Shown one piece after another: positions 2,036 through 12,123 of a DNA stretch of 16,548 bases (position 1 is the stretch's first letter; each line of letters starts with the position of its first letter). The notes beneath the pieces were generated by a model that worked only from the letters and a program-made list of their open reading frames with translations, ran no database searches and had not been told where the DNA came from. The position numbers and the translations under genes were made by a program. This DNA is from Escherichia phage vB_KppS-Ant, in sequence record LR881103, one strand, 5' to 3'.

Positions 2036-4333
2036 ATGGCAGGTAAATCATTAGGCACTCTCACCATTGACCTGATCGCCAGAACCGGCGGTTTTGTCCA
2101 GGGTATGGATAAAGCCGAACGTTCATCACAAAAATGGCGGGATAACGTTAAAAAAGATGCCGCAGCCGTGGGTTCAGCCCTTGCTGCTGTTGGCACAGCC
2201 GCAGCAGCGGCGGCTATCGGTGTTAGTGCCGCTGGTATTGCACTGGTAAAAAATACCTCAGAGCAGATCACTGAAACTGATCGCTGGGCTAAATCGCTAA
2301 AAATGTCTACTCAGGATTTGCTTTCATGGCAGTTTGCTGCTGAGAAAGCAGGGTTGACCGGGGATAATATTGCTGACATCTTCAAGGATATTAACGATAA
2401 AGTCGGCGATGCTGTCCTGAACAAGTCAGGTGAGGCTGCTCAGGCTCTGGATACTCTCGGGCTTTCAGCTGAGAAACTGGCCCAGCAATCCCCTGATAAG
2501 CAGTTACTGGCTATCAGCTCGGCATTGCAAAAAATCCCCTCTCAGGCCGGGAAAACTAATATCCTCGAAAGCCTGGGGAATGACCTGTCAAAAATGCTGC
2601 CGTTGTTCGACAACAATAACGAGAAGCTGAAGCAGTTTATCCAGCTGTCAAAAGATTTTGGTGTCGCTCCGCCCCAGGAGGATATTGATAACCTGGTTAA
2701 GGTTAATCAGTTTTTCCAGGATATTGAGAGCAGTGCACAGGGGTTAAAGATCGAGATTGCCAGTGGCCTGGCTAAAGTAGACCTCTCACCGATTCAGGAT
2801 GGACTTGATGATATCCGGGATGTGTTTACCGATCCTGCTGTTCTGTCAGGTCTGGCAAAGCTGGTCGGAGGGATGGCGGAACTTGTTGGCTGGATGGGTA
2901 AGCTAAGTTCTGAATCTGCTAATTTTCTCAGCCATATATTTGAAGTGCCTGACAGGTTTAAGGCGGGTGGCTGGTACGAGTTTGAAAAAAATCAGAGATT
3001 AGGAGCAATAGCAGATACGCTTCAATCAGATTTAGGGGGAATAACTAAACCATCTTCAAACTCTGAGTTGCCAATAAATAATAACCTGCTCCCCGGGCAG
3101 AGCAATCAGAAACAAACTCAAAAGCCTGATGCTGAGGCAAAAAAACTTGAAAGTGCCTATAAAGCCGTAGAACAGTCATATTTAAAGCAAATTGCGCTGG
3201 TGGATCAGCTAACCGGGAAAACCAAAGACGCCACTGAAGTAGAAAAACTACATTTCGATTTAGTATCTGGTCGTCTGGTTGGGATAAATAAAGAACAGCA
3301 AATCAGGCTTGAGGGCTTGGCCTCAGAAGTTGATAAATATAACGCGTTGTCAAAATTTCGAGATTTGCAGGATGAGTTATTAACTCCAGAAGAAAAATTA
3401 CTTAAAACGACGAGAGAACGTTTTGAAATATTAAAAGATATTCAGGGAATGAAGGGGATCAGCCCTGATGAATATAAAAAAGCAGCAGAAGCCATATCGA
3501 AAGATTCATTTACAGATATGCCTAAATTTAGTGGTCTTGATCCGATGTTTGGCGGTCAATCTGGAGAGTTAAGAAAAGTTGATGACGCACAGAAAGAACA
3601 GGAAAAATGGTATCAGAATCAGCTCGATTTGCTGGAACAGAACCGTCAGGCACGTTCTGACCTTAATGATGAGTGGGATGCCAGAGAGCTTGAACTGAAG
3701 AAAAAACACCAGGATGAAATGAATAAGCTCGATGAAGCCCGTAATCAGCTGATGTTGAGCAGTGTTGTCGATGGGCTTGGTTCTATGGTGGATTTGACCC
3801 GTACAGCTTTTGGTGAGCAATCAGGAGTATACAAAGCCGCGTTTGCAGTTCAGAAAGCCGCGGCTATTGCTCAGTCTGTTATCGCTATCCAGCAGGGGAT
3901 CGCGATGGCGGCTGCAAACCCTTTCCCGTACAACCTTGCAGCGATGGCCAGCGTAGCCGCTTCTACAGCCGGTATTGTGTCGAACATTGCGGCCGTGGGT
4001 ATGGCTCACGATGGTATTGATGCTGTTCCAGAAACCGGAACATGGCTTCTCCAGAAGGGCGAACGCGTAGTCACGGCGAATACCAGCGCGAAACTGGATG
4101 CGACCCTTAACCGTGTCGCCCAGCAATCCACTTCTGGTAATCAGATTTCCCAGGAATTTAATTTTAACGTTAATGGCGATCCTTCTGATGCTCAGATAGC
4201 CATGATGAAGAAAGCGGCCGCTGACGGTGCCAAGATGGGGTATCAAAAGGCGGTCAATTCAGTAATTACTGGTCAGGGTGATTTGCACAAGGCTCTGATG
4301 ACGAAAACTAATTCAGGCAGAAAAATAGGGTGA
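2036..4333 (+). CDS. Tail tape-measure-like protein (lambda gpH family architecture)
   Basis: 765 aa; N-terminal GTLTIDLIARTGGFVQGM segment followed by an Ala-rich hydrophobic stretch; long central charged Lys/Glu/Gln-rich helical region; C-terminal hydrophobic Ala/Gly-rich block then GIDAVPETGTWLLQKGERVVTANTS, which resembles the conserved C-terminal motif of lambda-family tape-measure proteins; strong RBS (AAGGAG) upstream. Confidence 0.65.
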   Translation: MAGKSLGTLTIDLIARTGGFVQGMDKAERSSQKWRDNVKKDAAAVGSALAAVGTAAAAAAIGVSAAGIALVKNTSEQITETDRWAKSLKMSTQDLLSWQFAAEKAGLTGDNIADIFKDINDKVGDAVLNKSGEAAQALDTLGLSAEKLAQQSPDKQLLAISSALQKIPSQAGKTNILESLGNDLSKMLPLFDNNNEKLKQFIQLSKDFGVAPPQEDIDNLVKVNQFFQDIESSAQGLKIEIASGLAKVDLSPIQDGLDDIRDVFTDPAVLSGLAKLVGGMAELVGWMGKLSSESANFLSHIFEVPDRFKAGGWYEFEKNQRLGAIADTLQSDLGGITKPSSNSELPINNNLLPGQSNQKQTQKPDAEAKKLESAYKAVEQSYLKQIALVDQLTGKTKDATEVEKLHFDLVSGRLVGINKEQQIRLEGLASEVDKYNALSKFRDLQDELLTPEEKLLKTTRERFEILKDIQGMKGISPDEYKKAAEAISKDSFTDMPKFSGLDPMFGGQSGELRKVDDAQKEQEKWYQNQLDLLEQNRQARSDLNDEWDARELELKKKHQDEMNKLDEARNQLMLSSVVDGLGSMVDLTRTAFGEQSGVYKAAFAVQKAAAIAQSVIAIQQGIAMAAANPFPYNLAAMASVAASTAGIVSNIAAVGMAHDGIDAVPETGTWLLQKGERVVTANTSAKLDATLNRVAQQSTSGNQISQEFNFNVNGDPSDAQIAMMKKAAADGAKMGYQKAVNSVITGQGDLHKALMTKTNSGRKIG

Positions 4334-4786: not shown

Positions 4787-4803
4787 TGAACCCAACCAAT
4801 CAA

Positions 4804-4837
4804 AGCACTGGACTATGTTCTGGTGCTTTTTTATTTG
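4804..4837 (+). terminator. Rho-independent terminator (hairpin then T-tract)
   Basis: agcactgg...ctggtgc stem followed by tttttta ttt immediately after the 4786 stop. Confidence 0.5.
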
Positions 4838-4849
4838 TGCGAGCCAACG

Positions 4850-4871
4850 TGTATAAACATATGTATAAACA
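4850..4871. repeat. Tandem pair of TGTATAAACA decamers (left copy of a 22-bp composite repeat)
   Basis: tgtataaaca-ta-tgtataaaca at 4850..4871, repeated 21/22 at 5083..5104. Confidence 0.7.
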
Positions 4872-4875
4872 CTAA

Positions 4876-4915
4876 TAAAAAAGGCGCTTCCCCATGCCGA
4901 AGAGCGCCTTTTTAA
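4876..4915. terminator. Bidirectional intrinsic terminator-like hairpin flanked by A-run and T-run
   Basis: aaaaaAGGCGCT...AGCGCCTTttt: 8-bp stem (4881..4888 with 4903..4910) with A-tract upstream and T-tract downstream. Confidence 0.5.
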
Positions 4916-5082
4916 ACAAGCATTTAACTGATTGGTATCAGTTCATGCCGTACTGTCATATTAGCTGTTTTCATGCTTTTAGATGATTTTAATATTCATA
5001 TAATAATCAATGTGTTGTATAAATTCATGCCTGTATATTGTTCCAGTGTTTTTCTTTGTTTATGCTATTATGCAAGCAATTC

Positions 5083-5104
5083 TGTATAAACATTTGTATA
5101 AACA
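5083..5104. repeat. Tandem pair of TGTATAAACA decamers (right copy), just upstream of the integrase start
   Basis: tgtataaaca-tt-tgtataaaca at 5083..5104; candidate integrase arm-type sites. Confidence 0.7.
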
Positions 5105-5122
5105 CTTTGGGCTGGGTGGTCT

Positions 5123-6343
5123 ATGGCTGGCGAACTTAACAAACTGAGCGACAGGAAGTTAAAGGGATTACATGGTATCCCGGCCAGTAAGATTGAGTTC
5201 TATGCTGATGGTGCCGGGCTGAGCGCCAAGGTAACTAAAGCTGGTGGTATTAGCTGGGTGTTTACTTACCGACTCGACGGGCAGAAGCTGCATCGTCTTA
5301 CTCTGGGACGATACCCGGATATGAGCCTCAAAGAGGCCCGTTCTTCGCGTGATAAATGCCGCCAATGGCTGGCCTCAGGTAAAGATCCAAAGCACCAGTT
5401 GGCGCTGACCACTCAGGAAACGCTTAAACCGGTCACTGTTAAGGAAGCTATAGAATACTGGATACGCGAATATGCAGAAGAGAACCGCGCGAATGTTGAA
5501 CGGCACAAAGCGGAGCTGCGAAAACACATTTATCCTTATATAGGGAAAATGGCGCTCGCTGACTGTGAAACACGATACTGGCTTGACTGCTTTGACAGGA
5601 TGAAAAAGAAAACTCCAGTCGCCGCAGGTTATGTGTTCCAGATGTGCAAACAAGCCCTGAAATTCTGCCGGGTTCGTCGCTATGCTGTGAGTACCGCGCT
5701 TGAAGATTTAACAATTCCAGATGTCGGTAAAAAACAGGCAAAAAAAGACCGGGTATTAAACGATAAAGAGGCTGGCGATTTATGGGCTGCCATTTCCTCT
5801 GGCACTTGCTTCATGCCTTACTACACCAGGCTACTGACAATCTTAATGGTGTTTGGGTGCCGAACGCAGGAGGCCAGGCTATCAGAGTGGAGTGAATGGG
5901 ATATGGATGCCTGGGTCTGGACAGTTCCCAAAGAGCACAGCAAGGGCGGCGAGAAGATTGTAAGACCTGTGCCGGATGCCATGCGCAAATTCATTGAAAT
6001 ACTGCATGATGAAACGAAACGATCCGGCCTTTTGCTTGGGTCGGTTAAAGGCAGTGAAGCGGTAAGTCAGTGGGGCCGCGGTGTTTATAAAAAGCTGGGG
6101 CATTCTGAACCATGGACACTGCACGATCTAAGACGAACTTTAGCAACGCATATGAATAATATGGGTATAGCACCACACGTTGTCGAACAGTTGTTGGGGC
6201 ACTCAATGCCGGGAGTTATGGCGATTTATAACCGTAGTCTGTACTTGCCTGAGAAACTGGATGCGTTGAATAAATGGTATGACAGACTTGATATTTTATC
6301 AGGTGGATTCACTAACATTGTTTTGTTGAATAGGGCTGAATAA
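5123..6343 (+). CDS. int: Tyrosine site-specific integrase, P4-type (N-terminal arm-binding domain plus C-terminal catalytic domain)
   Basis: 406 aa; N-terminal L.D.K...GL.....G..W.F.YR..G.....LG.YP..SL.EAR...D pattern of P4-like integrases; C-terminal HDLRRT ... LLGH ... Y catalytic signature. Confidence 0.9.
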   Translation: MAGELNKLSDRKLKGLHGIPASKIEFYADGAGLSAKVTKAGGISWVFTYRLDGQKLHRLTLGRYPDMSLKEARSSRDKCRQWLASGKDPKHQLALTTQETLKPVTVKEAIEYWIREYAEENRANVERHKAELRKHIYPYIGKMALADCETRYWLDCFDRMKKKTPVAAGYVFQMCKQALKFCRVRRYAVSTALEDLTIPDVGKKQAKKDRVLNDKEAGDLWAAISSGTCFMPYYTRLLTILMVFGCRTQEARLSEWSEWDMDAWVWTVPKEHSKGGEKIVRPVPDAMRKFIEILHDETKRSGLLLGSVKGSEAVSQWGRGVYKKLGHSEPWTLHDLRRTLATHMNNMGIAPHVVEQLLGHSMPGVMAIYNRSLYLPEKLDALNKWYDRLDILSGGFTNIVLLNRAE

Positions 6344-6993
6344 TGACTAGTTTTCTAAAATTGGGTATTTTCGAGCGAGAAGCCAAAGCCCCGGAACTCA
6401 ATATTAAACAACTTGCACTACTTATGTGTGGGGTAGATCCGACAGTTAAAACTGCTGATATCCCTGAGGCGAAAGTTGAAGCTTACAATATATACTATCG
6501 ACAACTGAGTAGATGGTTATCAGCATCTAAATTATTTCGAGGTGGAAACTCAACAGCCTATCCCGCAGACTATATGTTTGCTCTGGCATATCCTCTTATT
6601 GATGAAGATATTACACCACAACCCATAAAGGACAGATGCCTTGCAGCGGTGGCTATAATTGCTAATCAAAACAAAGGAAAAGAGCATCTTTATGCTATGG
6701 GAGGGGATGAGCTTTTACAGGTCGGAATTGCATTGAAAAGCAGCAAACGCGGCTTGCATCGTAAAGAAGATGAAAAGGAATATAATGATAAATTAATGGG
6801 GATGCTGGTCAAGCTTATAGCACATAAGATAGGCCATTCGTTTGGCACCTCTAAAAAACCAAGCATCTCGGCTATTTTAAACGAACTATATAAATTAGCT
6901 GATGAGGAAGGTATATCTAAAACTGGATTATCCAAATCAGCAATATATGATAAAATTCGCAAGGCATTAAATTCGATTTATTATACGGAATGA
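6343..6993 (+). CDS. Hypothetical protein (216 aa), AT-rich cargo gene translationally coupled to int
   Basis: Start overlaps the int stop (TAATG); codon composition visibly more AT-rich than the neighbouring core genes; no recognisable catalytic motif. Confidence 0.55.
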   Translation: MTSFLKLGIFEREAKAPELNIKQLALLMCGVDPTVKTADIPEAKVEAYNIYYRQLSRWLSASKLFRGGNSTAYPADYMFALAYPLIDEDITPQPIKDRCLAAVAIIANQNKGKEHLYAMGGDELLQVGIALKSSKRGLHRKEDEKEYNDKLMGMLVKLIAHKIGHSFGTSKKPSISAILNELYKLADEEGISKTGLSKSAIYDKIRKALNSIYYTE

Positions 6994-7129
6994 ATATTAT
7001 TTTGCAGTGTTAGTGGGTGTTATTTATATTTCATGTGAAAATACTAATTAATTATATTTGTTGGAGCTTTTGGCGATTCTATGATCGCCAAGGAGATTCA
7101 ATTGTTATATTTGATGTTTATTACAGTTA

Positions 7130-7229
7130 CATTCAACAGCATTCAACAGCATTCAACAGCATTCAACGACACGTAACGACACGTAATGACACGTAACGGC
7201 ACCCGACAGCACCTAACAATACCTAGCTC
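7130..7229. repeat. Array of ten contiguous 10-bp units (CATTCAACAG x3, then progressively diverged copies)
   Basis: cattcaacag at 7130, 7140, 7150; cattcaacga, cacgtaacga, cacgtaatga, cacgtaacgg, cacccgacag, cacctaacaa, tacctagctc follow with strict 10-bp period. Confidence 0.8.
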
Positions 7230-7270
7230 CATCCACGGTCTCTACTAGGTCATTACTTGCTAACTTTTTC

Positions 7271-7337
7271 CATCTTTGTTCATGGTTATTCATCACTGTT
7301 CATCAGCGTTCATCATTGTTCATCTTTGTTATGAACA
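7271..7337. repeat. Second 10-bp-periodic array: TGTTCATC-type units (about 5 direct copies plus 1 inverted copy)
   Basis: catctttgtt catggttatt catcactgtt catcagcgtt catcattgtt catctttgtt then atgaaca; the unit is one mismatch from the TGTTCACC octamer clustered at 11720..11950. Confidence 0.75.
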
Positions 7338-7379
7338 ATCCAAGGCGAATCAAATCGTTAAAGAACGGTGATCTTCGGC

Positions 7380-7583
7380 GAGTTATTGAAATTCATGATT
7401 TTTTCTCTCGCGACAGCCGTTGAAATTACTGTGGAAATTGTTTTCAACAGGGGAGCGTTATCTTGATGGAATTTCTATCTTTCAATGGAATTGCGTGTTC
7501 TTTTAAAGGATTCCAGAATCAATGGAAATGCTGGTCGTTTATCCACTAATCTCTTCGCATAACATTGAAACAGTGGAGGCAGC
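7380..7583 (+). promoter_or_regulatory. alpA upstream regulatory region with dispersed TGGAA(A/T)T and TTGAAATT repeats
   Basis: gtggaaattg (7431), tggaattt (7467), caatggaattg (7483), caatggaaatg (7520); ttgaaatt at about 7386 and 7421; promoter not confidently placed. Confidence 0.3.
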
Positions 7584-7868
7584 ATGCAAAATATAACCTT
7601 TACCCCGCCAAATCCTGAACAACGCCGCACCCTTTTAGAAGAGTACGGCTTTAAGTTTGATCGCCGAATCCGTGAAGATGAATGCAGCGAGATCACCAGT
7701 CTTTCCCGTTCCAGCCGCTGGAAGATGGAACAGCAGGGGCGCTTCCCTCCGCGCTGTCACTTTGGCCGCAATAGCTGTGCTTGGCTTCTTTCGGATGTGC
7801 TCTGGTGGGTTCGTAATCCGCCAGCAGTAGAGAACGTCAATAACCCATACAGCCGTAAATCTGCTTAA
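7584..7868 (+). CDS. alpA: AlpA-family phage transcriptional regulator (excisionase-like HTH)
   Basis: 94 aa; ...SEITSLSRSSRWKMEQQGRFPPRCHFGRNSCAWLLSDVLWWVRN matches the AlpA-family HTH pattern; GGAGG RBS; position downstream of int as in P4-like and PICI elements. Confidence 0.7.
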   Translation: MQNITFTPPNPEQRRTLLEEYGFKFDRRIREDECSEITSLSRSSRWKMEQQGRFPPRCHFGRNSCAWLLSDVLWWVRNPPAVENVNNPYSRKSA

Positions 7869-7888: not shown

Positions 7889-8581
7889 ATGAAAAAGATT
7901 AATGCCCTCCACGGGCAGGGATTCGCTCACCCTGTAGCCAGCCAGCACGATATTTCAGCGAACCGTAAACAGGTTATTGCCGGTGACTGGTCGCCCATTA
8001 ATCGCGGTGAATTTACGCTTGCCGATCTGGGGTTGCGCCACAACGGTAACGGGCTGGTGTGGCTGCGTTCCGGCGTGTCCGTGCATGAGGCAGACCATGA
8101 TGCAGGGATAAGCGGCAAGGACAAGACCAAAGGAAGGGTTAACGGCCTTCCTTTTGAATTTGTCGGCCAGTGGCAGGAATACCCGACTAAACGCAGCTTT
8201 GCCGTTTCAGTATCTACGGAACTACGGCGCCAGTATTACCCGGACGATGCCGCATTCAGTAAGGCAATGCGTGAGGCTGGTTATGTTCCGGTGCGCACTC
8301 GCAAACTGACCGGAAAGGATGCTCGTTTTTGGCTGTACCGTGTAACGGGCAATGATAAGGGGGTTGTCGCAGCAGAATCCGCGCCACACAAGGCTTGCGC
8401 GCCAGTTGTCCAGACCATATCTAAGCCTCATCCGTGGTTTAAGCGTGTGGCACTCGATGGTAAATGGCAGTACGTCTACGCAGATCACATCCGCTTTCTG
8501 ACTAAAAAGCGTCATCGCGTCGATGGTGTTCGGGTTCAGGGGTATACCGCTGGCGGGCTGAAAGTGGAGGCTATTGTATGA
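7889..8581 (+). CDS. Hypothetical protein (230 aa) between alpA and the replication module
   Basis: Protein-like composition; stop overlaps next potential start (ATGA); function not recognisable from sequence. Confidence 0.55.
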   Translation: MKKINALHGQGFAHPVASQHDISANRKQVIAGDWSPINRGEFTLADLGLRHNGNGLVWLRSGVSVHEADHDAGISGKDKTKGRVNGLPFEFVGQWQEYPTKRSFAVSVSTELRRQYYPDDAAFSKAMREAGYVPVRTRKLTGKDARFWLYRVTGNDKGVVAAESAPHKACAPVVQTISKPHPWFKRVALDGKWQYVYADHIRFLTKKRHRVDGVRVQGYTAGGLKVEAIV

Positions 8582-8593
8582 CAGGCAAAACAA

Positions 8594-8615
8594 AGGCGGC
8601 CATGCCGGGCCGCCT
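8594..8615. other. GC-rich hairpin (8-bp stem, 6-nt loop) right after the 7889..8581 stop; terminator-like for minus-strand readthrough
   Basis: AGGCGGCC-atgccg-GGCCGCCT; the U-tract lies on the minus-strand side (complement of aaaacaaa at 8586..8593). Confidence 0.35.
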
Positions 8616-8923
8616 GAGTCTCAACGCTTTACTGAAACATCGCCAGATTACCAGGCTTGCCGCTGGTGGTCAAACCTTGAGCCAACGAAATCCGTACGCA
8701 CAAATTAACCGCGTACGTTTAACGTACGGACATCGCAATCCATTGAAGGAACTTGATTATAACGAATCGTTAGAATCGGCTGGCAACAAACACGAACAGT
8801 ATTCGGGTTCGCCTGAACATCAACACTGCTTAGGTTCAGAGGTTCCGACGAATAACGTAGAGAGCTGCGAAGATAACCAACCCTCTTTAAGAGGTGAGCC
8901 TCTGCACAACGCATTAAGAGTTG

Positions 8924-8950
8924 CGCAAAACAACCCCTCTTTAAGAGGGG
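8924..8950 (-). terminator. Rho-independent terminator for the minus-strand RHH gene
   Basis: Minus-strand reading: CCCCTCTT-a-AAGAGGGG followed by ttgtttt, about 35 nt downstream of the 8982 stop; a second similar palindrome CCTCTTTAAGAGG lies at 8881..8894. Confidence 0.55.
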
Positions 8951-8981
8951 CAGTTCACAGCATTACGGAGAGTAACCCTGT

Positions 8982-9185
8982 TCAGCTTTCAGGTTCCGAT
9001 CTGGCTTTCTTGCGCTGCTCAGATTTGAGTTTGCGCCCGCAGGCATCCAGAACCCACGCAGAGAAATTAGCACCGGCGTTATCTGCTTTCTCTCGCTCTA
9101 CGCTGGCGTCAATCTCTTCAATAAGTTCGTGCGGAAATCGTATCTTTTTCTGCGCTGATTTAGCGTTTACTGCCTTAGTAGCCAT
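8982..9185 (-). CDS. Small ribbon-helix-helix-like DNA-binding protein (67 aa), candidate repressor
   Basis: KIRFPHELIEEIDASV...NFSAWVLDACGRKL fits a beta-strand / helix / helix RHH (Arc/CopG-like) layout; strong RBS AGGAGG 4 nt before ATG; own terminator; divergent from the replication operon promoter. Confidence 0.55.
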   Translation of the reverse strand: MATKAVNAKSAQKKIRFPHELIEEIDASVEREKADNAGANFSAWVLDACGRKLKSEQRKKARSEPES

Positions 9186-9198
9186 TTACCCTCCTGCG

Positions 9199-9271
9199 TA
9201 TAGTGAGGGTACACCATATCAGAAAAATAGCTTGACGTGTACCCCCACCGAAAATATAGTGGGGGTGCACC
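9199..9271 (+). promoter_or_regulatory. Near-consensus sigma70 promoter (TTGACG-17-TATAGT) overlapped by three operator-like 12-mers GTG(A/G)GGGT(A/G)CAC
   Basis: -35 TTGACG 9232..9237, 17-nt spacer, -10 TATAGT 9255..9260; 12-mers at 9203..9214 (+), 9237..9248 (inverted) and 9259..9270 (+); 17-bp direct repeat tatagtgagggtacacc / tatagtgggggtgcacc. Confidence 0.55.
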
Positions 9272-9363
9272 TTGAGGTTGAAGATACTCAAGATACAGCG
9301 AAGCCCGGCAGTGTTACCAGCACTAACCGGGCCTCTGACCACAACGTAACTGAGGCTTACATC

Positions 9364-9552
9364 ATGGCTTGTATACAGCATACCCAAACTCGCCCCAAAT
9401 ATCAGTATCGTTTTCTTGCGCTGAGCGCCATCGGGCGCAACGTCATTCACATCACCGCTACCACTGAGCGCGAAGCCCGTGAGCAATCACCGGATGGATG
9501 CGTGATGGTATTCGCTGGTCGTCTGCCAGTTCGGGAGGGGCACCATGCGTGA
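9364..9552 (+). CDS. Possible small leader protein (about 62 aa), 3' portion of the long ORF 8578..9552
   Basis: ATG at 9364 with GAGG 8 nt upstream, downstream of the 9232..9260 promoter; sequence MACIQHTQTRPKYQYRFLALSAIGRNVIHITATTEREAREQ... looks more protein-like than the upstream part of the frame. Confidence 0.3.
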   Translation: MACIQHTQTRPKYQYRFLALSAIGRNVIHITATTEREAREQSPDGCVMVFAGRLPVREGHHA

Positions 9553-9739: not shown

Positions 9740-9954
9740 GACAGGTTCCTTTTGAAGTCCTGATGCACGCTGAAAATGCCCTTTCTGAAAGCGAAGGAGC
9801 CTATGAGGTTCTCAGCATGTGGCTAGACAGTATTCCTGAAAGCGAGGAGTTCCACGGTGAAGCGTGCAAGGTAAGCGCAATCATGTCGCTGCTGCATAAA
9901 TCTATCGGCGAGCTGGTGAAAGCGCGGGAGGCTTACAGTGAAAAACGCGCCTAA
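9736..9954 (+). CDS. Hypothetical small acidic protein (72 aa)
   Basis: ATGA overlap with the upstream ORF; Glu-rich; overlaps the helicase start. Confidence 0.45.
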   Translation: MRQVPFEVLMHAENALSESEGAYEVLSMWLDSIPESEEFHGEACKVSAIMSLLHKSIGELVKAREAYSEKRA

Positions 9955-11689
9955 TGTGAAAACCCTCCCGCGCGACAAAATGGAGGAGGCCATCATCTTT
10001 GCTGGAACGGGAGCATGGAAAGCCGCTCAGGATTACCAGAAAGGGAAGGGCGAGCATGGAGACGATGTTCCGCCTGTGGTTCTGGATCACACCCAACTGG
10101 CGGAATTACCACACCTGCGCATTGTTGATAAAGGCCGTCGATTTGCCCGTGTCTGTCAGGCCGGGCTTATCGAGCAAAACCAAATCAGCATGATTGCAAA
10201 TAAGTTGTGTGAGGCTGGCGTTACCAATGCTGAGTTTATCAACGAACAAGGCGAGAAAGAGGACTGGACGCCATTGATGAAACGTCTGGAAGACGAGCCC
10301 CTTATGGTGACTACGAGGGGAAGTGCTACGCCAGCGCTTAACCAGATGGGAGCCAGCCAGCGCGGGGAAGTTCTGCTTGCTCATTACAATGGCAATCTGG
10401 CGATCCATGCTGATTCCGACACGGTTCATCATTACAACGGCGTGGTGTGGGTTCCGCTTTCGGATAAAGAGCTGCAGCGAGAAATGGCGCAGATTTTTAT
10501 TGATTCCGAAGTCGCCTATTCGCAGAACGCGATTAAATCCGCTGTCGATACAATGAAGCTGGGCCTCCCGGTAATGGGTAACACAGCCCGTAACCTGATT
10601 GGTTTCAGCAACGGGGTTTTTGATACCCGGTTAGGCCAATTTCGACCGCATGATAAAAAGGACTGGCTTATCGTTGCGAGCGAATTGCCATTCAGCGAAC
10701 CAGCAGAAGGTGAAACTCTGGCAACCCATGCGCCTAACTTCTGGAAATGGCTCCGCCGCTCTGTGGCGGATAATGACCGAAAAGCAGACCGCGTACTGTC
10801 TGCGCTGTTTATGGTGCTGGCGAACCGGTACGACTGGCAGCTGTTTCTTGAGGTAACGGGGCCGGGCGGAAGTGGTAAAAGTGTCATGGCTGAGATCTGC
10901 ACGATGCTGGCGGGCAAGGCCAATACGGTATCGGCGAGCATGGCGGCGCTGGAGAACCCAAGGGAAAGGGCGCTGGTAGTTGGCTATTCGCTGATTATCA
11001 TGCCGGATATGACCCGGTACGCTGGCGACGGCGCAGGGATTAAAGCTATCACTGGCGGGGATAAGGTGGCTATCGACCCAAAACACAAAGCGCCATATTC
11101 AACCCGTATCCCGGCGGTGGTGCTGGCCGTCAATAACAATGCTATGACGTTCAGTGACCGCAGCGGCGGTATTTCAAGGCGACGGGTGATTTTCAACTTC
11201 ACCGAAGTAGTGCCGGAAAACGAACGCGATCCGATGCTGGCCGAGAAGATTGAAGGAGAGCTTGCGGTAATCATCCGGCATCTGCTTGTGCGCTTTTCCA
11301 GCCAGAACGAAGCCAAACAGCTTTTGCATGAGCAGCAGAAATCAGAAGAAGCGCTGGCCATCAAACGTGAAGGGGATTCACTGGTGGACTTTTGCGGATA
11401 CCTGATGGCTTCGGTGGTTTGTGATGGAATGCTGATTGGTAATGCCGAGATCGTGCCATTCAGCCCGCGCCGTTATCTGTATCACGCTTATCTGGCTTAC
11501 ATGCGGGCCAATGGTCTTAGCAAGCCTGTATCGTTAATGCGGTTCGGTACGGATATGCCAGGCGCAATGGCTGAATATGGCAAGGAGTACCAGAAGCGCA
11601 AAACTAAAAATGGCATAAGATCGAACGTCACCCTGCATGATGATTCAGAAGACTGGATGCCAATGTGTACCGATACAACAAAAGAATAA
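9938..11689 (+). CDS. Replication protein: P4-alpha / D5-family SF3 helicase (phage/plasmid primase C-terminal type), probable origin-binding initiator
   Basis: 583 aa; Walker A GPGGSGKS about 300 aa in; D5_N-like region upstream (HYNGVVWVP); GTG start with GGGAGG RBS; iteron cluster immediately downstream. Confidence 0.8.
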   Translation: MKNAPNVKTLPRDKMEEAIIFAGTGAWKAAQDYQKGKGEHGDDVPPVVLDHTQLAELPHLRIVDKGRRFARVCQAGLIEQNQISMIANKLCEAGVTNAEFINEQGEKEDWTPLMKRLEDEPLMVTTRGSATPALNQMGASQRGEVLLAHYNGNLAIHADSDTVHHYNGVVWVPLSDKELQREMAQIFIDSEVAYSQNAIKSAVDTMKLGLPVMGNTARNLIGFSNGVFDTRLGQFRPHDKKDWLIVASELPFSEPAEGETLATHAPNFWKWLRRSVADNDRKADRVLSALFMVLANRYDWQLFLEVTGPGGSGKSVMAEICTMLAGKANTVSASMAALENPRERALVVGYSLIIMPDMTRYAGDGAGIKAITGGDKVAIDPKHKAPYSTRIPAVVLAVNNNAMTFSDRSGGISRRRVIFNFTEVVPENERDPMLAEKIEGELAVIIRHLLVRFSSQNEAKQLLHEQQKSEEALAIKREGDSLVDFCGYLMASVVCDGMLIGNAEIVPFSPRRYLYHAYLAYMRANGLSKPVSLMRFGTDMPGAMAEYGKEYQKRKTKNGIRSNVTLHDDSEDWMPMCTDTTKE

Positions 11690-11719: not shown

Positions 11720-11950
11720 GTGTTCACCACTGTTCACCATGTATAAAAATCATTAAATAACAATATGTTAATGGGTGAACACTTTTTTATGAAGTGTTCA
11801 CCAAGTATTCACCTGTTCACCCTGTTTTATCTTTTCCTCAGTTTGAGGTGAAGGGTTGGGTGAACACTAGTGAACACCTGAAAGAATAGTATTCACCCTG
11901 TAACTATATGAATTTAATTAATAAATTATCAAAGGTGAACAGGTGAACAC
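11720..11950. promoter_or_regulatory. Origin-like iteron cluster: at least 10 copies of TGTTCACC / GGTGAACA (and the TATTCACC variant) in both orientations in AT-rich DNA
   Basis: Copies at about 11721, 11731, 11774 (inv), 11794, 11805 (variant), 11814, 11859 (inv), 11869 (inv), 11889 (variant), 11934 (inv), 11942 (inv). Confidence 0.65.
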
Positions 11951-12095
11951 TTAAACGTATATTTTTTAATTTTATTGAGCAACGCAGGATCACTTCCAGC
12001 CTGGAATACCTGGGATCAATCATGGAACACGCACCGTGGAATATTAAAAGCTAATATTTTTGTAAATTATTTGTATTCATGTTTACTCATTCTTA

Positions 12096-12123
12096 CCCCC
12101 GTCTTTTGCGGGGGTTTTCTTTA
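12096..12123 (+). terminator. Rho-independent terminator between the replication and head modules
   Basis: CCCCCG-tcttttg-CGGGGG (6-bp GC stem) followed by ttttcttt. Confidence 0.6.

Follow-up and report, generated by a model that had tools for sequence, protein, structure and literature searches.

AlpA is the master activator of PICIs (PMC6092414). In the closest described systems, EcCICFT073 and EcCIMP1, the alpA promoter is silent without a helper phage and is induced by the helper even when alpA is mutated; AlpA then amplifies its activity (PMC6092414, PMC11773190). The same two studies leave open the route by which the helper phage reaches alpA, and hence the route by which Gram-negative PICIs and cf-PICIs are induced, and the cis-element is not defined in either. 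Whether Gram-negative PICIs possess a global repressor has likewise been left undecided (PMC6092414). In Gram-positive PICIs, SaPI Stl acts at operators in the stl-str intergenic region: the product of an island regulator gene located beside int controls the promoter that starts the cycle, this control is relieved only by the helper phage, and its specificity varies from island to island. A further precedent is phage P4, whose PLL promoter is activated by P2 Cox through repeated cox boxes, several short direct boxes lying upstream of a satellite promoter and bound by a protein that switches the satellite on.

Here we report the analysis of a 16,548-nucleotide stretch of DNA (record LR881103, Escherichia phage vB_KppS-Ant), the whole of which is referred to below as the window. 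The window carries the same gene, alpA, as EcCICFT073 and EcCIMP1, but the region upstream of it is a different, exchangeable module, in which TGGAAT-type words recur close to an unannotated gene, orf216. We place at roughly one half the probability that these words are a phased array of protein boxes that controls the alpA promoter and is read, most likely by the orf216 protein, in a co-operative and helper-dependent manner. Such a system would resemble SaPI Stl in the position and role of its regulator gene, in its release by the helper and in its island-specific recognition. It would differ in that orf216 is unrelated to Stl in sequence and fold and is co-directional with alpA rather than divergent, in that the linked promoter looks activator-dependent, and in that both DNA binding and helper sensing by the orf216 protein are predicted. 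The likeness to P4 PLL ends with the sequence and spacing of the boxes, and with their binder, which is helper-encoded in P4, whereas the boxes in the window co-vary with a gene of the island itself. This conserved promoter-control architecture, tied to an uncharacterised gene family, was previously undescribed and lies in an experimentally tractable satellite. Our analysis provides box coordinates at the level of single bases, together with a predicted -35, -10 and transcription start, as the cis-element of alpA, and a single candidate trans-acting gene, orf216.

The satellite element and the words upstream of alpA

The window is a circularly permuted capsid-forming PICI (cf-PICI). Searches with Pfam and NCBIfam identified int, alpA and a P4-type primase/replicase, along with the element's own capsid and packaging genes (capsid, protease, portal, head-completion, HNH, TerS and TerL) and no tail genes, in an element whose 16.5 kb compare with the size of ~15-17 kb by which cf-PICIs are defined. 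The gene map is as follows.

23-379: TerS
363-2024: TerL
~4800-5110: att-like region
5123..6343, + strand: int, tyrosine integrase (Pfam Arm-DNA-bind_3 and Phage_integrase)
6343..6993, + strand: orf216, 216 aa, unannotated (phrog_30524, no function)
orf216-alpA intergenic region: 590 bp
7575-7579: GGAGG, Shine-Dalgarno sequence of alpA
7584..7868, + strand: alpA, 94 aa (PF05930), followed by several small ORFs
9938-11689: P4-alpha-like primase, followed by an iteron cluster and then by capsid, protease, portal, head-completion and HNH

The int-alpA module, comprising orf216, the boxes and alpA, is 100% identical in Klebsiella pneumoniae ATCC 13883, which we take to be the same strain as DSM 30104 and which is the probable host of the described cf-PICI KpCIDSM30104. 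By this identity the module is already in experimental use, KpCIDSM30104 having been described and studied experimentally (bioRxiv 10.1101/2025.02.11.637232). Only 6 of 5426 complete E. coli genomes contain the orf216-alpA intergenic region of the window, and there the island adjoins yhdJ.

Two further reading frames of the element deserve mention. A 765-aa ORF (2036-4333) follows TerL at the end of the island and has no Pfam, NCBIfam or PADLOC match; the variable region that holds it is where cf-PICIs reportedly carry immune systems (bioRxiv 10.1101/2025.02.11.637232). The other is a 324-aa ORF (8578-9552) with a match to the Icd-like cell-division inhibitor domain (NF033153) in its last ~50 residues. 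E. coli relatives encode the Icd-like protein in a separate 63-aa gene, and the ORF of the window is either a fusion or an over-extended ORF call.

An original prediction, made from the letters of the window alone, had drawn attention to repeated words within the 200 bp preceding alpA. It listed at least four copies of TGGAAWT, and these are found at 7432, 7467, 7486 and 7523, all on the + strand; the whole 16.5-kb window has eight copies, four of them thus lying within 98 bp. The two copies of TTGAAATT that it also listed are located at 7386 and 7420 on the + strand. An extended pair, TCAATGGAAWTG, does occur at 7482-7493 and 7519-7530, with a start-to-start distance of 37 bp instead of the 36 bp given, and an inverted copy, ATTCCA at 7510-7515, had been overlooked. 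The features of the region, with the box names used in this work, are these.

7386..7393, + strand: distal box TTGAAATT; invariant in close variants, not alignable in distant lineages
7420..7427, + strand: distal box TTGAAATT; conserved in close variants, one of which reads TTGAAATC
7432..7438, + strand: box U0, TGGAAAT; 35 bp upstream of U1, last base polymorphic
7462..7474, + strand: box U1, CTTGATGGAATTT; core TGGAATT at 7467-7473, centre at ~-91 from the predicted start, in register in 14 lineages
7481..7493, + strand: box U2, TTCAATGGAATTG; core at 7486-7492, 19 bp after U1, centre at ~-72
7500..7516, no strand assigned: box U3, CTTTTAAAGGATTCCAG; left half fits the direct unit, right half TTCCA(G) is the inverted partner of U4
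7519..7530, + strand: box U4, TCAATGGAAATG; hexamer TGGAAA (7523-7528) at the -35 position of the alpA promoter
7547-7552, + strand: predicted -10 hexamer TAATCT; 18 bp after the U4 hexamer, predicted transcription start at ~A7559

The prediction had proposed an enrichment test against shuffled sequence, and this was carried out with dinucleotide-preserving shuffles of 7341-7583. With TGGAAWT fixed in advance, four copies were reached in none of 5000 shuffles. When the post-hoc choice of the motif is allowed for, at least four copies of some 7-mer with a single two-fold degenerate position turn up in 8.7% of the shuffles, and at least six copies of some 7-mer with two degenerate positions, the equivalent of TKGAAWT x6, in 2.7%. 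The enrichment is thus significant for a fixed motif and marginal after correction for its choice (3-9% of shuffles), so that the support given by this one sequence is only moderate. We regard the boxes as a signal beyond chance because they are conserved across elements, not because of their enrichment in a single sequence.

Conservation of the boxes and of the alpA promoter

Among close relatives, orf216 is present at ≥98% identity in 17 IMG/VR contigs, none of which lacks the conserved core upstream of alpA. Across 10 distinct close variants, motif columns of the segment 7380-7497 vary less often than the remaining columns (5/37 versus 25/81; one-sided Fisher p = 0.034), and upstream of 7498 the boxes stand out as conserved islands amid variable spacers. 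In the diverged close variants (86-91% DNA identity) the alpA coding sequence has accumulated many synonymous changes, and in these same variants 7498-7594 is almost invariant.

To reach further, 12 members of the orf216 family were looked up, with identities from 75% down to 32%: one metagenomic sequence, members from Rahnella, Yersinia, E. coli, Proteus, Xenorhabdus, Serratia, Pectobacterium, Edaphovirga and Providencia, and two more distant ones. In all 12, orf216 overlaps or abuts the end of int and is followed by 290-730 bp of intergenic sequence and then by an alpA-type gene. When 12 lineages were anchored on RGATTC, the last ~130 bp aligned without gaps, with the boxes in exact register and the spacers variable; upstream of U1 no alignment is possible across distant lineages. 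The consensus reads TCAyTGGAAT for U1, the same word 19 bp on for U2, TTTCAAAAGATTCCAG another 19 bp on for U3, and CTCAyTGGAAw, 18 bp after U3, for U4. This 19/19/18-bp spacing is kept without indels in all of 14 lineages, from E. coli to Proteus, except the most distant one, L129, in which it is ~18/21/16. The two extra lineages extend the series to 32-36% orf216 identity, L128 with exact spacing and L129 slightly shifted. U3 is the best-conserved segment of the architecture, and the inverted repeat that it forms with U4 reads TTCCA-N7-TGGAA in the window and TTCCAG-N5-CTGGAA in most relatives. At the column of U0, four distant lineages read TTGAAT; in one of them, L045, this word shares its TTGAT with an IHF-consensus core, and L046 has an IHF-like core at that column without TTGAAT.

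The hexamer of U4 occupies the -35 position of what appears to be a conserved and intrinsically weak sigma-70-type promoter. In the window the predicted elements read TGGAAA-18-TAATCT, with A2 and T6 present in the -10 and 3-4 of 6 matches per hexamer, and in all 12 lineages tested a -10-like hexamer with A2 and T6 (mostly TAnnnT) lies 16-18 bp after the U4 hexamer. Across lineages the alpA-type gene begins with a start codon 45-68 bp beyond U4, a distance that is 61 bp in the window. A generic promoter scan returned nothing at the boxes, and the alpA promoter is below its threshold; the promoter call rests on positional conservation across lineages and not on that scan. Homology with other alpA islands begins only at ~7561, about the predicted transcription start. 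Conservation of position at a conserved promoter thus lends strong support to the general idea of the original prediction, namely that the words are sites controlling the excision regulator alpA.

In its layout the region recalls several activator-dependent promoters, among them AraC/XylS I1-I2, MalT boxes, PhoB pho boxes and lambda CII, in which a proximal box replaces or overlaps a poor -35, further copies lie upstream at fixed phase, and intrinsic promoter strength is low. None of these families shares the 19-bp period, the extra inverted arm or the putative binder of the window, and the likeness is architectural only. Iteron plasmids (F RepE, P1 RepA, pSC101) also have ~19-bp direct repeats followed by an inverted repeat of the same word over the -35 of the downstream gene. 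In the window, in contrast, that gene is alpA and not a replication initiator, and origin-like iterons (GTTCACC x8) are found elsewhere, at 11720-11950; any similarity of orf216 to Rep proteins was not significant.

The box word itself has changed in some lineages. The three direct copies of Proteus are all TAGAAA, with TTCTTA as the inverted arm; Providencia has TAGAAA at U4 and the same TTCTTA arm, with a degenerate U2 and a U1 that is still TGGAAA, shifted by one base. All four boxes of L129 (32% identity) are TAGAWT, and the words are mixed in Serratia and Pectobacterium. In L048, L053 and L129 the pair TTCCA/TGGAA has co-varied to TTCTa/TAGAA. From these alignments, the boxes of three lineages appear to have shifted from TGGAA towards TAGAA in near-concert; a near-simultaneous change of the same base, including the complementary inverted arm, is what is expected for sites of one protein whose specificity has drifted.

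The same change would be compensatory in RNA (C-G to U-A), and it bears on an alternative in which U3/U4 form an RNA hairpin, UUCCAG...CUGGAA, within a transcript reading through from int-orf216, the repeats being RNA elements. In its favour, the region lacks a predicted terminator between orf216 and alpA. U1 and U2, however, lack anything to pair with, the stem has only 4-6 bp and is interrupted in L051 and L128, and a -10 element follows U4 at a fixed distance in all lineages. Against Rfam, the window had no match reaching the gathering score, nor did 6900-7700 have one at E ≤ 1. We consider an RNA element extremely improbable.

Some neighbouring sequences were considered in passing. The spacer between the predicted -35 and -10 contains, at 7539-7547, TTATCCACT, the only TTATCCAC of the window and an 8/9 match to the DnaA box TTATCCACA; close variants keep it unchanged, and some distant lineages have TTATCCAGT or ATCCAT instead. 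Readings of the boxes as sigma-54, sigma-E or sigma-32 elements gave no fit when compared by eye with the consensus sequences. A TTCCAG-N3-CTGGAA match within alpA (7709-7723) is attributed to the coding sequence and shows no conservation at synonymous sites. A hairpin masking the Shine-Dalgarno sequence of the window, ATCCAC...GTGGAG, was rejected as being no stabler than shuffled sequence (z = 0.06), and it would moreover lie upstream of the predicted transcription start. In islands without orf216, the alpA Shine-Dalgarno sequence GTGGAGG pairs with an upstream CCTCCAC arm (L003 8513-8560, L004 1111-1170, L005 2992-3020), with an inner stem that is compensatory between L003 (ACGCAA/TTGCGT) and L004 (ACACA/TGTGT). 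This suggests that a 5'-UTR hairpin may exert translational control of alpA in those islands.

Candidate readers of the boxes

Boxes and orf216 occur together in all 14 lineages, in 17 of 17 IMG/VR contigs and in 12 of 12 family members. A scan of 100,044 species genomes with the core pattern produced four genuine matches, all with orf216; the other 70 matches were, where checked, coincidences in coding sequence outside Enterobacterales, in about the number expected by chance. No box array without orf216 was found in the IMG/VR contigs or in the 100,044 species genomes, a scan that used the exact core pattern, so that diverged cases could escape it. The type of primase and the gene after alpA vary freely among box-bearing elements. 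The box architecture is inherited with orf216, and not with the type of AlpA, the primase or the post-alpA gene; an island may also have an almost identical int and yet lack the boxes. Across recombinant backgrounds, orf216 is the one island gene with which the sites co-occur and co-vary, as would be expected of a cognate regulator.

The orf216 protein is all-helical and has 216 residues, and its gene always separates int from the alpA promoter with the boxes. As int and orf216 overlap at the int stop codon, the two genes probably form one operon. Its family is small (23 clusters at 90% identity and 47 at 50% among 1.84 billion proteins), and every named source is in Enterobacterales. It matched no Pfam, NCBIfam or PADLOC family, and searches gave no structural neighbour and no recognisable DNA-binding fold. 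The C-terminus is HTH-like (GLSKSAIYDKI), with matches below threshold (Pfam E ~0.01-0.07, hhalign probability <1%). A search for covariation between orf216 residues and boxes pointed to K198 versus R/Q, one of only three discriminating columns, and was not significant. On the distribution of the boxes we consider the product of orf216 the most likely candidate for their reader, although the coupling could also reflect mere physical adjacency.

The original prediction had named other binders. One of them was AlpA itself, which would bind the boxes and boost its own promoter. Excisionase-type winged-helix proteins typically bind direct repeats, a property that would suit such autoregulation. 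Self-activation of the alpA promoter by AlpA is documented for EcCICFT073 and probable for EcCIMP1 (PMC6092414, PMC11773190). The boxes, however, separate from the type of AlpA in both directions. Five E. coli islands (L005-L009), in which the int-alpA gene encodes DUF6387 or a 309-313-aa hypothetical protein and the upstream regions are short and unrelated, have an AlpA that is 97% identical to that of the window and identical in its HTH, yet contain no TGGAAW cluster anywhere in 6.3 kb. Conversely, L052, L128, L129 and L049 have unrelated short AlpA proteins behind the same boxes (71-78 aa, HTH_17-type, 15-22% identity to the AlpA of the window). We therefore hold autoregulation through these boxes to be very improbable.

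The integrase and host factors fare little better. As integrase arm sites the boxes would be misplaced, since they lie 2.3 kb from the att region, which has a repeat of its own, TGTATAAACA x4, and since the int region of L003 has ~84% DNA identity yet lacks the boxes. The four TGTATAAACA copies form two tandem pairs, 4850-4871 and 5083-5104, at a distance of ~230 bp. A terminator-like hairpin (4802-4829) precedes the upstream pair, and the start of int comes immediately after the downstream one; the copies are likely arm-type sites of the integrase flanking the att core. More broadly, the words could be host-factor or core-promoter features, such as sites for IHF or a nucleoid protein, UP-element or -35-like hexamers, or the integrase sites just discussed. 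TGGAAA and TTGAAA do look like the -35 hexamer TTGACA, the A/T-rich U3 is located where an UP element would be, and IHF-consensus sites are enriched nearby. Neither TGGAAWT nor any TTGAAATT box matches the IHF consensus WATCAANNNNTTR, however, the only nearby match being at 7348-7360. U1 (~-91) and U2 (~-72) are outside core-promoter positions, and the boxes are absent from E. coli islands with other int-alpA genes. Xenorhabdus, Proteus and Providencia all belong to the Morganellaceae, and within this one host family the word is TGGAA in the first and TAGAA in the other two. We judge this whole group of explanations improbable; a host factor may nevertheless take part, though not through the TGGAAWT words. 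The original prediction was thus right in kind, in that the TGGAAT-type words seem to be control sites of the alpA promoter, and probably wrong in the binders that it named, since they are probably not AlpA or integrase sites.

The main rival to orf216 as box reader is a protein of the helper phage, for example a Cox/Xis-like or late-activator-type inducer that binds the boxes and switches on alpA, orf216 being a hitch-hiking accessory gene. The constant presence of an orf216 regulator leaves, by itself, the dependence on a helper unexplained, and direct repeats ahead of a weak promoter would be suited to an activator, for which P2 Cox at P4 PLL is a precedent; the lack of a recognisable DNA-binding fold in orf216 points the same way. 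Helper phages moreover activate alpA transcription with no need of AlpA (PMC6092414, PMC11773190). Against a helper protein stands the persistence of the box word and its exact spacing from E. coli and Klebsiella to Xenorhabdus, Yersinia, Rahnella and Serratia, hosts in which helpers should differ. In the same E. coli hosts, furthermore, islands with another int-alpA gene use quite different repeats, and no box array without orf216 turned up in the collections searched. We view direct reading of the boxes by a helper protein as rather unlikely.

Islands with other int-alpA genes bear their own, different repeats before alpA. Those of the DUF6387 type have three copies of ATAGAAAAAAT at 27-28 bp, partly inside the 3' end of the gene; others have three copies of TTCTAAnnnTTAGA or a 12-bp perfect inverted repeat, a palindrome, before alpA (sites at L007 2854-2923, L006 2855-2950, L003 8393-8468 and L005 2907-2943). 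This hints at one repeat word for each type of int-alpA gene. The variable int-alpA gene and the alpA upstream region may, as the comparison suggests, constitute an exchangeable specificity cassette, which would explain why homology between islands begins at the transcription start of alpA.

In the reading that we prefer, the boxes would be read by a factor that co-evolves with the int-orf216-box module. The orf216 protein would be co-transcribed with int in the resident state and would bind U1-U4 co-operatively, possibly along with the distal boxes at 7386, 7420 and 7432, assisted by IHF bending at 7348-7360. Binding would make transcription of alpA depend on a signal from the helper phage, U1-U4 being the helper-responsive control element, and AlpA would later amplify its own expression through some other site. 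The orf216 protein could work in either of two ways: as an activator, responsive to the helper, that substitutes for the poor -35 contact, or as a repressor that occludes the -35 until removed by a helper protein. We slightly favour the activator, because the alpA promoter is weak throughout the lineages and its -35 is replaced by the proximal box; by analogy with SaPI Stl, occlusion of the -35 by a repressor would fit the geometry equally well.

A wider proposal, which we offer tentatively, is that orf216, together with the box array, the IHF site and the 10-bp arrays described below, constitutes the missing helper-phage sensor of Gram-negative PICIs. The protein would be a regulator of new fold, co-expressed with int, by which the alpA promoter is held or licensed and on which the inducing protein of the helper acts directly; other int-alpA genes (DUF6387 and others) would be alternative sensors with their own boxes that set helper specificity. 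If orf216 is indeed the sensor, it would define a new family of regulators and provide a handle for engineering the induction of satellites.

Tandem arrays, IHF sites and other nearby elements

The upstream half of the orf216-alpA intergenic region is occupied by short tandem arrays, followed by an IHF site.

7130..7229, no strand assigned: array A, 10-bp tandem repeats CATTCAACAG, CACGTAACGA and CACCTAACAR; copy number strain-variable
7271..7339, no strand assigned: array B, six 10-bp units TGTTCATCAn, ending in the inverted pair ATTGTTCAT/ATGAACAAT; copy number varies
7348..7360, + strand: IHF-consensus site AATCAAATCGTTA, between arrays and boxes

Intergenic lengths of 570, 580, 590, 600, 620, 630, 640 and 650 bp reflect the gain and loss of 10-bp units in arrays A and B. 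A survey of the intergenic regions of the window and of L044-L053, L128 and L129 revealed lineage-specific arrays in this half of the region, with a period of 10 in 11 of 13 lineages and of 9 in two. In lineages with the orf216 module the self-match at period 10 is 0.37-0.46, compared with ~0.25-0.30 at other periods. The sequence of the unit differs between arrays and between lineages. Possible roles of the 10-bp arrays include curvature, a wrapping platform or slippage-prone DNA. Array B, with its GTTCATC, was also considered as a set of extra primase iterons and rejected, as the arrays follow orf216 across lineages that have different types of primase.

In the segment between arrays and boxes, 10 IHF-consensus sites were counted in 7 of 13 lineages versus 0.69 expected, and none of 500 shuffles reached 10. 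Taken together, the arrays and the IHF sites suggest that a bent or looped nucleoprotein complex may form at this locus. A second IHF-consensus match is situated at 5005-5017, in the att region.

A palindrome, TTGGCGAT-tctatg-ATCGCCAA, lies at 7073-7090, 80 bp past the stop codon of orf216. Its stem is kept in all close variants, its loop varies and a T run is absent. It may serve as a site for a protein or as a non-canonical terminator.

Further TGGAA words occur downstream of the primase gene, in an 83-bp segment (11975-12057) that contains the palindrome TTCCAG-C-CTGGAA (11994-12006), TGGAAC (12023) and TGGAAT (12037) and is followed by a strong intrinsic terminator with a T run (12095-12115). 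The segment is missing from every other orf216-bearing element, for which reason its TGGAA cluster (11994-12042), which looks like a second operator, could not be linked to the box system; the segment may represent a remnant, a short transcription unit or a second operator. Just after the primase gene, at 11720-11950, GTTCACC occurs eight times on both strands, a number reached in none of 200 shuffles. The word presumably corresponds to the type I iteron TGTTCACC of phage P4, and the cluster is probably the replication origin of the element.
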